The position numbers and the translations under genes are program-made. The notes beneath the pieces were generated by a model. The model made no database searches. It saw only the letters and a list, made by a program, of their open reading frames with translations, and was not told the DNA's origin. A stretch of DNA of 57,586 nucleotides, the filler included, from Dugesia japonica (lineage: Eukaryota), in NCBI GenBank assembly GCA_001938525.1. It is 6 parts of 6 records of this genome, joined end to end, with 100 filler letters (N's around TTAATTAATTAA, not from the genome) between each part and the next. Parts side by side here need not be neighbours in the genome. Positions count along the whole stretch, not along the records: positions 48,510 to 57,586 come from MQRL01607861.1; 5 more parts are not named here. The stretch is one strand, 5' to 3'. Shown one piece after another: positions 48,510 through 57,586 of this stretch (within the stretch, counting starts at the first letter, position 1; each line of letters opens with the position of its first letter).

Positions 48510-48683
48510 ATATTTTTCAAGTTAAATAAAACTGATAGAGATAATGTGTATCATGAGTTATTTTCAAATATATTTAATAATAACTCAGAATATGATTATG
48601 AAGTAAATCTTCACTGGAAGACTAAGTATAACTATTTTTATTTAAATAAGGAAACTGATGAGATGTTAGATGATTTATTTTAG
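48510..48683 (+). CDS. C-terminal end of probable A32/FtsK-like packaging ATPase (partial)
   Basis: Open frame IFFKLNKTDRDNVYHELFS...HWKTKYNYFYLNK...LF* resembles Polinton ATPase tails (ILFK...D...IY...W..KY.FL.I). It is convergent with the other genes. Confidence 0.55.
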   Translation: MFFKLNKTDRDNVYHELFSNIFNNNSEYDYEVNLHWKTKYNYFYLNKETDEMLDDLF

Positions 48684-48707
48684 ATGGGTTCATTTGGGTG
48701 ATTTATT

Positions 48708-49805
48708 TTAGCGTTGGGTGATTTGTTTTAATCTTTTTTGTGCTTCTATTTGATTATTTGCATTAGTTATAAATTCTTGTTCTTTAGCTATTATATCTTC
48801 AATATCATTAAAATGTTCTCGTATCTTTCTAAATGAAAAATTACTTTCAATAATACCAGGCCATGTTTCTGCTATTTTGGCAAATCTAATTAATCTATTA
48901 ATGTAACTCATTGTATGAACATATCCATTTCCTGCTATATAATTTAAAAAGTCTTCATAATGTTTTTTCTTATTATTAACTTTAAATTTTAATTTTAAAG
49001 TGTATAATATTGCACCTAACATTGCATATGAATATAATATTCCACGTTTAAACATTACTAATTGACTATTCCATCTCTTATATTCATCTAATAAATAAGT
49101 TTGACTTTTAGTTGCTAATACTGCACAATTTTCTTTAAATTTTTCTATTTTAATATCTTTTAATGGAACTTTATATCTTTTATTAGTTTTAAATGAATTA
49201 AAAAGTTCCATTCTAAATGTTTGTGGTTTATCCATTGCCATTTTTACATCATCTTCATTATCTGTTGGAAAATATCTTGATCTTATTTCTTTTCCATCTT
49301 TTATTGTTCCTTTTATTCTTGCTCTTTCATTTCTACCAATTGGTAATGGTAATATTAATTGACCATTAACTATTTGTCTATTTTCTACATTCTTAAATTG
49401 TCCACTTTCCATCTGAATAGTTCGTGTTGCTCTTGGATTAATTTCCATATTAAATTTAGGTGGATCAAATTCTTCTAAATTTGGTAATTTTTCAAATGTG
49501 TTTCTTTTTAATAATGTTAAATTATCTGGATTAGTAATAATTACTAAATGATCTGGTGGTAATTGTTGGAATTCTGATTCAGATTCTGATTCATCATCAG
49601 TTCCATCTTGATCATGTTTCATTTCTATATATTCTTCTTCATTAAATACTTCAGATTCTGATTGTTCATCGGGAGATTCACTTTCAGATTCGGAACTAAT
49701 TAAATTATCTAGTATAATTATTAAACTTTTTAATTCATTTTTTAACATTTTACCATTCTTAATTTTAGGTAATACGCGTTCAATTTTACATATAACATCT
49801 TCCAT
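48708..49805 (-). CDS. 365-aa accessory protein, Oncoid-like (acidic N-terminus, helical C-terminal domain)
   Basis: Intact ORF. The C-terminal G.IL..LK...F.......SYINRLIRF..I...WP.I....SF..I pattern is recalled from adintovirus accessory proteins. Confidence 0.6.
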   Translation of the reverse strand: MEDVICKIERVLPKIKNGKMLKNELKSLIIILDNLISSESESESPDEQSESEVFNEEEYIEMKHDQDGTDDESESESEFQQLPPDHLVIITNPDNLTLLKRNTFEKLPNLEEFDPPKFNMEINPRATRTIQMESGQFKNVENRQIVNGQLILPLPIGRNERARIKGTIKDGKEIRSRYFPTDNEDDVKMAMDKPQTFRMELFNSFKTNKRYKVPLKDIKIEKFKENCAVLATKSQTYLLDEYKRWNSQLVMFKRGILYSYAMLGAILYTLKLKFKVNNKKKHYEDFLNYIAGNGYVHTMSYINRLIRFAKIAETWPGIIESNFSFRKIREHFNDIEDIIAKEQEFITNANNQIEAQKRLKQITQR

Positions 49806-49905
49806 TTTATAAGTATAAAATTTAATCCGAGACGCATGTGTGTCAAAATTTGGTACTCAATATTTAACACTCAATATTTACATGTAACATTTAACACTCA
49901 ATATT

Positions 49906-53999: not shown

Positions 54000-56900
54000 T
54001 TATAAACAATTTAATGTTCGATTTATAATGTCCAATCTTAAATGCCAGATGTCAAATTTTACACAATAACATTTATTACCATGTGGCCAAGTTCTAACAC
54101 CATTATCTTCAATGATTATATTCAAGAATTGTAAATCCTAAATATGGAAATTTGTTAAATTTTAAATTTGTTTTTGTCATGTGAACTGCTGCCATTGTAT
54201 CTATAATTTCACCATCTATTGTGAAACTTTTACTACTTAAATAAGTTGATTTAGATGCATACTTTTGAAATTCTTTATCAGTTCCTACTATTTCTACATT
54301 ACATCTATTCCTAATATTTTCTAGTGTTTTACCATAAAATGAATTATTCATATCTTTAAAGAATGTTACACCAAATTCATCACCATTACATTTAGATATA
54401 TTTCTTTGTTCTATATTAAAAAGTATGTAATCTATTAACCATGGAATTGTTGGTATTTTATATTTACTATGTATCTTTTTTAATTTCATACCTAATTGAA
54501 GATATAAATCTAAAGTTGATCCAAGTATAATGTATTTTTCTTTATCTAGTTGATTCATTCTTAATTTAATATTTTTATCAGTTAATTTTCTATTAAATGA
54601 TTTTTGATAATTACTTAACGTCTCATTTGTAATAATTATTCTGTCTGGCGCAAGTGGGAAATATTTAGTTCTATCATGTATTTCTTTAGGATAATCAAGA
54701 TCAACTTCATATAAATAATTCATTGTATCAGTTGCTATTTCATATGTTAAATTGTTGCATTCAATAAATTCACCTGTTGGTAATGGTTTTGTCATACATG
54801 ATGCATATAGTGAATTTGCATCAAGATATTTTTTATGAGTATCTATAAATAAATCATTAAGATATTCATCAGGAACAAACTCGTGTTCATTTAACATTTT
54901 TATTAGATCTTCAAACTGTGATTTATTTAATTGTTTAGTGTATGGATTTTTAGTATTATCATGACTAAATACTTGACGTTCACCTTCTTCACCAGAATAA
55001 CCACCTCTAACTCCACGTTCAAATTTTAAAAAATGTATCATAAGTTTCTTGTTTAGTGAATTTTAATTTAACTTCTGTAAATTTTGTACCAGCTACCCAT
55101 GTTAATCCAGATGCTGTATAACAATAACTTGGATCTATTTTATAAAAGTTTAAACAAATATTTCTAAAGTTTTCTACATAATCTGTTAAAATTAATACAT
55201 CCAATTTCATATAGTGTAACATGTAACACCACATATTTTCAAAGTTATCATAGTTATTTAAAAATTCTTGATATTCATTGTTTGATATTTCCTTTTGTCT
55301 TAATATATTAAAGAATTCTTTTTGAGTTGGTGTTTGATCTGATTTTAATAATTNNNNNNNNNNNNNNNNNNNNNNNNNNNNNNNNNAATCGTATGGAAAA
55401 TGAGCTTTTTTAGGTCTTAAGTTAAATGATGTTAATATTTCATGATTACTTGATTTAGCTAGTGTATCAGCCATTTTCTCAACTGAAGTTTTACATATTT
55501 TATATGAATCTAGAAATCTAATATTTTTATATTGAAATGCAAAATATTGATCATCTGAATGTGGTATTATTTTCTTTACTTCTTTTGGATGTTTATTTAA
55601 AAGTTGTTTGAAAAATAAATGATTGTCATAACCCATTGCATTATGGAAATAAAATGGGATGAATAGATTCTTTTTACATTTATTTTGAAGATTACATTCT
55701 TCATGTGTATATCCATAAAACTCACCATTGAAATGATTGTGTTCTTTAATTGGTTTTTCTATGATTGGTTTTTCACAATAATAACATTTTGTGTTAGATG
55801 TAAATTCACTATGCTCACCTGTATATTCTTTATGTAACTTGTTAAAAATAACATCTCTAAATTTATTATTAATATATTCAAGAAACTTTATAAAATCATT
55901 AATTACATTTTCTCCTGAGAATTCATAGTATTTACTTTCCATTAAATCTGGATAATCAGATTTTAAATATATTCCTAAACTTAATGGTTGTTGAATATTA
56001 TTTTCTTTGGTGTAACATTCAAAATCTCTATACATAACAAATAGTATTTTATTTTTAAAATAATTATTTTTAAATTCAAAGTATTTCTCTCTGGGAAATA
56101 TAACATTTGCTGTTTTATGATGTATACATTCTTGTTGATGTTTTAATAAAACTTCTATACTTGAATATTGATTCATACAACCTAAACATAAATGATCACC
56201 TGGTTTAACATCAAATAAAGTTTGTACATTTCTAACTAATACATAATGATTTCTATAAATTAACAAATTACATTTATTTTCTTCAGGATTAGGGTTTACA
56301 TCAAAATGTGAAATGTAAAGTGGTGTAATGTTATATTCTCCATTTAATTCAAAAACATTAATATTAAAGTTATTTAACTTTTCTAATTTCTTTACATCTT
56401 CAATTGCTGATGGAAAGTTCATTCCTGTTATTTTTAATTCTGNTAAATGTGGNATATAATTAGTTACACGTCTTGCATTTGGTAAAACATATTTATGTGC
56501 TAGAACTGAATATAATAAACATTTATCATCTTTGTTTTCAATATTAATCAATCCATATCTTTGTATTGGTAAATCACAATAAGTGAAATCACCACCAGTT
56601 AAAGATTGATATTTTTTTAATTCTATTTTAAAATTAATTATGTGATCCATATTCCAATTAGATTCACTTCTTTCTTTATCATGCATATAATTTTCTACTT
56701 CTTCAAACATTTGATTTATTTTTTTAAATATTGATGCTTTGGTATAAACGTTTCTATTTTTAGTGTATGAATAAAACTTAGTTATTCTACCTTCTTTACT
56801 ATTTTGTGAATTTATACCCATTCTCATTTTAAATTTATGACCTAATGCAAAAAACTCTCTAACAATATCTTCTATTTCTAGTTTAATCCTTTCTACTGAT

Positions 56901-57361
56901 CTTAATTTATATCTTTCAATATCTCTTGTCATCTCTAATCTACTATTTAGAAATATTTTAATATTATAATCTGGATATGTTTCATTATTGTAAACATGTT
57001 TAATATGTTTTAGTGGATTTCGATTTTTTACCAATCTATTAATAATTTTCATATGATTTTTACTTTTTAAATGTTCACTTAATAATTCTTAATTTGGTAA
57101 ATGTTTGTCACAAAATTCACAATATAAATTAATATTGGCACATTTAGATTTAGTCATGGGTATATTTAAACCAGATTGTGTTTTAAATTTTTTTTGACAA
57201 ACTTGACATGTTACATAATCTTCTGGATTTATAACTTCACATTTTTTAGATTTGATACGTGAATTTAATCCACGTTTATTTTTAAATGTTTTACTACAAT
57301 TAGAACATGCTAATGTATTCATTTTTATTTCTTCTTTTTTAATTATAAATAATTTAATCAT
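54000..57361 (-). pseudogene. polB: Protein-primed family B DNA polymerase with zinc fingers and an endonuclease-VII-like insert; disrupted
   Basis: Exonuclease motifs DFE, FHN..GYD and Y...DV. Polymerase motifs YLDANSLY and K...NSFYGK. HNH-like CYYC...HNH..G.F.G..H..CN. TAA at 57089-57091, frameshift near 55030, and the YxDTDS region is deleted near 54120. Confidence 0.92.
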
Positions 57362-57394
57362 ATGTTATTTTTTTTCCTCTTAAATTTTTGTCCT

Positions 57395-57586
57395 CTTAAA
57401 TTTTACATGTACCATTTTACATTTTTCATGCTCCATTTTACATGTGACCACTTTTAATATGACATTTAACATATGCATTTAAAATCTTACATGTGTCCAC
57501 TTTTAATGTGCCATTAACATATACATTTAAAATCTTACATTTTACATTTTTCATGCTCCATTTTACATGTGACCACTTTTAATATG
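57395..57586. repeat. Subterminal/promoter tandem repeats upstream of polB
   Basis: Repeated TTACATGTG(A/T)CCACTTTTAAT, TTTTACATTTTTCATGCTCCA and CATTTAAAATCTTACAT units. Confidence 0.8.

Follow-up and report, generated by a model that had tools for sequence, protein, structure and literature searches.

A probable beta-adintovirus-type Polinton fragment, inactivated and from a very high-copy family, in an AT-rich animal genome

Polintons, or Mavericks, share a core of PolB, integrase, C5 protease and ATPase (PMC3671162). In vertebrates, Mavericks are mostly degraded, some genomes harboring hundreds of defective copies (PMC8097293), and a single survey of 960 genomes counted 20,702 integrase-linked pPolB1 genes (bioRxiv 10.1101/2023.08.22.554363). 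The described systems closest to the locus treated here are the beta adintoviruses, with an exemplar from the box turtle Terrapene (PMC8502044). The locus is a contig of 9,077 nt (9.1 kb) at positions 48510-57586 of a 57,586-nt stretch of DNA, referred to as the window. With a probability of roughly 85 %, the contig represents an internal part of a single dead Polinton/Maverick (polintovirus) copy with the beta-adintovirus virion set, and the family of this copy has multiplied to very high numbers in the AT-rich genome of an animal.

With the beta adintoviruses, the contig shares a divergent PolB with no PF03175 match on the window pieces, the adenain, penton, GasderminX-like, cupiennin-like and Adintoc-type genes, a nearly overlapping array of open reading frames (ORFs), and an endogenous, degraded state (PMC8502044). 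It differs from them in lacking an Oncoid gene upstream of PolB, where zinc fingers stand in frame at the PolB start instead, in an orphan gene of 365 aa, in a PolB that is 25-42 % identical to the relatives found, and in that the contig lacks hexon, integrase and terminal repeats. Polintons and Mavericks in general offer the same PolB, C5-like protease, minor capsid protein and probable ATPase (PMC3671162, PMC8097293), as well as mostly degraded copies with occasional large expansions (PMC8097293); yet all genes but one lie on one strand of the contig rather than in two opposed modules. Among insect polintons, a cupiennin/gasderminX pair marks one of two groups (bioRxiv 10.1101/2025.02.07.637071), but the named insect PolBs are distant (Diabrotica 25 %, Episyrphus 30 %) and fall into another clade. 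Two IMG/VR contigs (L004, L006) and a metagenome contig (L063) carry PolB, protease, fibre-, cupiennin-, GasderminX- and Adintoc-type genes and a penton (no penton match in L063). Their gene order differs from that of the window, all three have a major capsid gene and an ATPase, L004 and L063 also an integrase, and their PolBs form a clade separate from the window PolB. These near-complete beta-type Polintons have a common block of cupiennin-type, GasderminX-type, Adintoc-type, major capsid and PolB genes, in this order.

Five identical 100-nt linkers (9924-10023, 19574-19673, 29408-29507, 38434-38533 and 48410-48509) split the window into six segments of 8.9-9.9 kb each with a GC content of 23-31 %. 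The window thus consists of six unrelated assembly pieces, and any feature spanning a linker is an artefact. The element fills the entire last piece. Hexon and integrase had been predicted just left of 48510; since this is the first base after a linker that is preceded by an unrelated contig, nothing to its left is part of the element. The features of the contig are as follows.

54000-57361, minus strand: pseudogene of a protein-primed PolB, from profile matches, zinc fingers and lesions
57089-57361, minus strand: PolB piece with C2H2 zinc fingers (Pfam, E 5e-6)
55019-57088, minus strand: PolB N-terminal and exonuclease piece
54109-55062, minus strand: PolB palm piece, with a short C-terminal remnant beyond
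51650-52492, minus strand: penton (minor capsid protein); profile E 1.4e-22, tblastn matches to 9 of 108 related loci
51274-51693, minus strand: adenain-like cysteine protease, 139 aa; profile E 1e-23, tblastn matches to 20 of 108 loci, Pfam Peptidase_C5 E 0.067
49906-50442, minus strand: GasderminX-like protein of 178 aa that includes a long hydrophobic stretch; E 8e-10 on a profile of six loci, tblastn to L004 3e-5
53497-53994, minus strand: cupiennin-like (pX-related) accessory gene with an in-frame stop, partly under N; from a motif and phmmer
52550-53488, minus strand: conserved Polinton ORF (Adintoc type), 312 aa; C-terminal motif against a 12-locus profile, domain E 0.004
50394-51197, minus strand: fibre-like protein, 267 aa; weak, N-terminal motif shared with fibre-type ORFs of L004, L006, L025, L045 and L063
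48708-49805, minus strand: ORF365, 365 aa, acidic over a stretch close to the N-terminus and helical in its C-terminal part; from coding GC and sister coverage
48510-48683, plus strand: probable C-terminal tail of an A32-like packaging ATPase, 57 aa, cut by the contig end; weak
48410-48509, no strand: artificial linker N44-TTAATTAATTAA-N44 (a 12-nt six-frame stop word between N44 runs), forming the left contig end
57369-57586, no strand: non-coding tandem repeats (periods of 16, 21 and 48, and a 65-nt repeat 125 nt apart), cut by the window end

About 8,265 of the 9,077 nt are taken up by minus-strand frames that share one orientation and abut or overlap; they converge with the one short plus-strand frame at 48510-48683, in the order and orientation that the original prediction had described. 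This array is real, as 200 shuffles of the sequence gave a mean of merely 0.05 stop-free frames of at least 130 aa. The contig contains 403 N, many of them in internal runs, and its GC content of 23 % compares with 25-31 % in the neighboring contigs.

Pfam was uninformative beyond the zinc fingers and the weak Peptidase_C5 match, and neither Pfam nor PHROGs returned a significant match for the virion genes. Hence, homologues were gathered to build dedicated profiles. Ten PolB homologues with 24-31 % identity were collected, nine of which were aligned, and this alignment led to 108 related loci (28 viral ones plus the best 80 of 589 from metagenomes). After clustering of their 989 ORFs, with Pfam labels on reference loci (for L004: rve, Pox_A32, DJR-like_dom with 7e-56 and Peptidase_C5), profiles were run on each of the 1,602 pieces that the six frames of the window give, weak matches being checked against 500 shuffles. 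For the GasderminX, cupiennin, Adintoc and fibre clusters, which no library names, the names are our presumptive assignments, made partly after PMC8502044.

PolB matches the 1242-position profile of the nine homologues over positions 79-799 with E 7e-98, and over positions 834-1060 with E 1e-50. It is a Polinton PolB in the form of a pseudogene without motif C. Its reading frame is closed by a stop behind the zinc-finger piece, shifts near 55020-55060 and has lost about 0.5 kb near 54120. The interval between the motif at which the palm piece ends and the C-terminal motif measures 177-204 residues in 55 of the 65 full-length homologues, with the catalytic DTDS motif at a median of 27 residues into it; the window retains about 14 codons there, so that some 165-170 codons including catalytic motif C are gone. 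DTDS is absent from all six frames of the window. A polymerase without this motif renders the copy unable to replicate alone.

According to the original prediction, the PolB would contain endonuclease VII. Its Cys/His pattern can be aligned in the window PolB and eight of the nine homologues match PF02945, but the window piece itself does not, and endonuclease VII was not found stated as a mark of the beta class in the available texts of the literature searched. The N-terminal region also keeps one Cys and one His that are conserved across the homologues and may represent the vOTU catalytic pair of an N-terminal OTU-like domain, following PMC11161782. PF03175 matched neither the window PolB pieces nor any of the nine homologues; a precomputed PF03175 mark is present on 57 of 69 palm homologues. 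The PolB profile search retrieved no relative of solved structure, and a search of viral contigs with a single PolB piece gave three pattern matches, none of which was confirmed.

The label of the penton, assigned in the original prediction, is borne out by profile and fold. A stop interrupts the frame close to where it probably starts, and its C-terminal third lies under N; a model of the 157 N-free residues was built with seven homologues (predicted local distance difference test score, pLDDT, 63) and compared with 48,161 chains. Six of the top seven rows were viral capsid or penton chains, so that the refuting case named in the original prediction, a penton candidate without a capsid fold, did not arise. 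The matches include the EhV-201 capsid chain (Z 8.5, root-mean-square deviation (rmsd) 2.5, 94 aligned residues; the entry is a fitted AlphaFold model), PBCV-1 (Z 6.2), the mavirus penton (Z 5.7, rmsd 3.3, 90 aligned), adenovirus-derived chains (Z 5.0 and 4.6) and Sputnik (Z 3.7). The best Foldseek row was again the EhV-201 capsid (E 0.041). These Z-scores are modest, but their pattern supports the penton identity. A chain of a flagellar hook protein in the second row (Z 6.5) was taken as a chance match. A heptad-like tail, encoded by tandem units of 21 nt at 51714-51771, lies in the penton frame; related pentons do not have it. As the junction lies under N, this tail may be a separate small ORF.

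The adenain and GasderminX-like labels likewise stand by their profile scores given above. The remaining virion labels are held weakly, by motif or shuffle control. For the conserved ORF, none of 500 shuffles scored as high as its C-terminal match. The cupiennin-like frame has a GGF-led hydrophobic motif in common with locus ORFs (on the profile, 4 of 500 shuffles reach its score); its top five phmmer matches among the 989 locus ORFs (E 0.0045-0.008) comprise one member of the cupiennin-type cluster and four ORFs adjoining or running into the protease gene, and its counterpart in L004 matches Pfam Adeno_PX with E 0.007. The profile match of the fibre-like frame falls short of significance, with 10 of 500 shuffles scoring equally well, and the probable ATPase tail aligns to positions 162-211 of 226 with an i-E of 0.64 (6 of 500 as high). 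The proposed class, an endogenous Polinton with the beta-adintovirus accessory set, thus holds through the profile support of PolB, penton, protease and GasderminX. In contrast, "nearly complete morphogenesis module" overstated the content of a contig with no major capsid protein and just the probable tail of an ATPase.

In a FastTree phylogeny of 112 palm regions (111 retained from 175 after removal of near-duplicates, plus the window), the window palm sits on a branch of 1.31, compared with a median of 0.39, reaches a top identity of 42 % and joins no supported clade. AT bias and pseudogene decay may lengthen this branch. The divergence in the proposal of an undescribed lineage is hence plausible. 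The family is a divergent representative of a known kind of element and is new by PolB distance in the collections searched, Repbase and Dfam lying outside the comparison. None of the 23 related loci with at least five gene classes has the gene order of the window, and order varies widely among the 23. A major capsid gene is present in 18 and an integrase in 20 of them, so that hexon and integrase are likely, judged from these relatives, to exist somewhere in the family. Three major capsid profiles gave no significant match in the window, the contig being truncated. An rve integrase is absent from the contig; the sole match in the window (24114-24227) belongs to another contig and lies among remnants of long terminal repeat (LTR) retroelements.

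Sequencing runs place this copy within a large population of relatives. Part of the contig is contained in 12 of 24 listed runs; organism A accounts for 11 of these and organism B for one. As 23 of the 24 are from organism A and stem from 11 studies dated 2014-2026, the host is not little-studied, contrary to what had been supposed. Base composition, the transposons on neighboring contigs and virion genes that are restricted to animals (PMC8502044) point to an AT-rich animal as the host. Four of the 24 runs were aligned to 48510-56442 (7.9 kb, 30 bins). In the DNA run X1, 20,944 contigs align to these 7.9 kb and cover all 30 bins; 2,318 are at least 99 % identical, 5,476 are at 95-99 %, 10,625 at 90-95 % and 2,525 below 90 %. 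It follows from this mass of contigs, mostly 90-95 % alike, that the family is very high-copy. The summed depth has a median of 8,671 per bin, whereas two pieces identical to the window have depths of 7.7-9.1. This ratio gives an order of magnitude only (hundreds of copies, perhaps more), since depth summed over contigs does not measure copy number. If it is roughly right, the family equals or exceeds the highest vertebrate counts of about 280-290 copies (PMC8097293). Run X9, guessed to be RNA, was treated as DNA, as it covers 30 of 30 bins like DNA. Among bins free of long N runs, the depth of sister copies varies more than 80-fold; it is highest at the ATPase tail, GasderminX, the protease and the PolB end, and lowest at the conserved ORF and ORF365. 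This variation suggests that accessory genes diverge faster or are replaced among subfamilies.

The copy itself is dead, with the stop, the frameshift and the motif C deletion in PolB and stops in the penton and the cupiennin-like gene. Out of 525 difference sites 40 were listed, and the 36 that could be placed fall on codon positions 1, 2 and 3 as 13, 13 and 10, matching the expectation without selection; this spread fits neutral decay of the copy. RNA runs are absent from the listed runs that contain part of the contig, which says nothing about expression. The RNA-seq runs X13 and X17 (2026) yielded 11 and 7 reads, all of them partial alignments with no sign of transcription in those samples, and the copy appears to be silent.

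Several points weigh against the proposed fragment of a dead, amplified beta-type Polinton. Major capsid protein, integrase, terminal repeat, target-site duplication and host flank are all missing from the contig, and integration is for this reason deduced rather than seen. The beta class is a probable assignment, drawn from the homologues and related loci collected here. The abundance figure is limited by the difference between summed contig depth and copy number, the 40 listed difference sites are those with the best support, and the RNA check comprises two runs, of which about 6 % and 25 % was read. No long inverted repeat was found inside the contig and both element ends lie outside it. 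The tandem repeats at 57369-57586 are possibly a subterminal region.

A rival explanation that deserves some weight, though it is unlikely, is that the family is still active, with intact sisters that mobilise or complement defective copies, possibly via virions, and that this copy is a recent casualty. Open frames do remain for ORF365, the conserved ORF, the protease, GasderminX and the fibre-like protein, and organism B has a small word share (0.10). Moreover, seven X9 contigs diverge from the contig at the deletion point in PolB, so that this deletion is probably particular to some copies. The 2,318 contigs with at least 99 % identity could also point to recent activity, yet they can be this locus itself, most of the 20,944 contigs are 90-95 % alike, and real RNA coverage was absent from both runs.

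We consider it still less probable that short reads of several similar copies were collapsed or joined into a chimeric contig, in which case lesions and gene order would not describe one real locus. The N runs, the highly repetitive family, the lack of any aligned piece spanning the whole stretch and a gene order seen in none of the 23 gene-rich loci speak for such an assembly. On the other hand, order varies widely among these loci anyway, the genes abut or overlap cleanly, and pieces identical to the window occur at low depth in independent runs (X1 at 7.7 and 9.1; X9 with 0 other letters). That the contig is instead a capsid-less, transposon-only derivative, in which the major capsid gene was lost and the other virion genes are relics, is improbable: the major capsid protein was indeed not found in the window, but the 9-kb contig ends inside a probable ATPase whereas intact vertebrate Mavericks measure 12.7-24.6 kb (PMC8097293), 18 of 23 gene-rich relatives have the gene, and penton and protease keep strong profile scores. 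An exogenous virus or a food or symbiont contaminant co-assembled with the host, for which the contaminant adintoviruses described by Starrett et al. (PMC8502044) and the lack of a host flank could be invoked, is very nearly discounted by the multiple inactivating lesions, by 28-37 % of the words recurring in seven runs from three studies, by a GC of 23 % against 25-31 % in neighboring contigs and, above all, by thousands of diverged variants among the aligned contigs from DNA of the same organism, which largely refute it.

The GC content of the orphan ORF365 by codon position (0.38/0.28/0.09) resembles that of PolB and sister copies cover the frame, which identifies it as a real gene. A search of 1,835,955,588 representatives returned no match, viral contigs gave six matches of which none was confirmed, and neither Pfam (above noise) nor PHROGs contained a relative. 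In the ESM Atlas, the whole protein scored 0.80 at best, and residues 215-365 resemble unnamed Mucoromycota clusters with a score of 0.95, a lead only; 26 of 30 Atlas matches of this C-terminal part are in sets without a common Pfam family. Rows for a Closterovirus coat protein (0.93) and a RegA-like protein (0.91) were not accepted. A single-sequence model (pLDDT 40.5, predicted template-modelling score 0.20) was unusable for a fold search. The frame had been proposed to be Oncoid-like. Oncoids combine LxCxE motifs with CxxC pairs and are usually encoded upstream of PolB (PMC8502044); ORF365 has neither motif and sits at the far end from PolB, and the label was dropped. ORF365 is a lineage-specific accessory gene, and as a tentative best guess its product might be a nucleic-acid-binding regulator.

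The gene content permits a proposal for how active ancestors of this copy would have operated. An rve integrase would insert the element, and the protein-primed PolB, with terminal protein and vOTU domains as in PMC11161782, would copy it from terminal repeats. The A32-like ATPase would then pack the DNA into double-jelly-roll capsids with penton vertices, and the adenain protease would mature the particle, while the cupiennin-like and GasderminX proteins would probably act on membranes during entry. This life cycle follows established knowledge of the group; what the data show directly are the gene identities, the lesions, abundant diverged sisters and a lack of RNA reads. In L004 and similar loci, the same gene classes co-occur with the major capsid protein (PF21738), the A32 ATPase and the rve integrase.

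The neighboring contigs contain transposon-like remnants only. At the end of the previous piece (47868-48402), a broken transposase remnant with a Cys-rich C-terminus and a weak Pfam match to DDE_Tnp_1_7 is presumably piggyBac-like. Fragments of LTR-retrotransposon-like reverse transcriptase, RNase H and integrase lie at 23176-24780 and 37792-38290, the integrase piece at 24114-24227 scoring E 1.7e-5 on the Polinton integrase profile. Short frames at 29827-30138, 41193-41796, 33889-34188, 17356-17679 and 13530-13808 are, by inspection, candidate remnants of mariner, Tc1, pogo/Tigger, piggyBac and hAT transposases, respectively. Two arrays of a similar degenerate 12-nt unit (31547-31665 and 36218-36360) share one assembly piece.

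Taken together, Polintons with such a gene set are common in animals and mostly broken, and an extra dead fragment adds little. The value lies in the family, with a PolB at most 42 % identical to relatives in the collections searched, an orphan gene and an apparent large Maverick expansion. Such expansions have been termed perplexing (PMC8097293) and, as context only, were tied to genome growth in Dugesia (bioRxiv 10.64898/2025.12.11.693146). In its fullest form, the picture would be an uncatalogued, deep-branching beta-type polintovirus lineage in one AT-rich animal group only, with many hundreds of copies or more, retained intact members and an ORF365 family unknown in other viruses; all of this holding at once is doubtful. 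Should an expanded lineage with intact members nevertheless be real, virion formation by animal Polintons and the origin of their expansions would become directly testable in a host with many public data sets.

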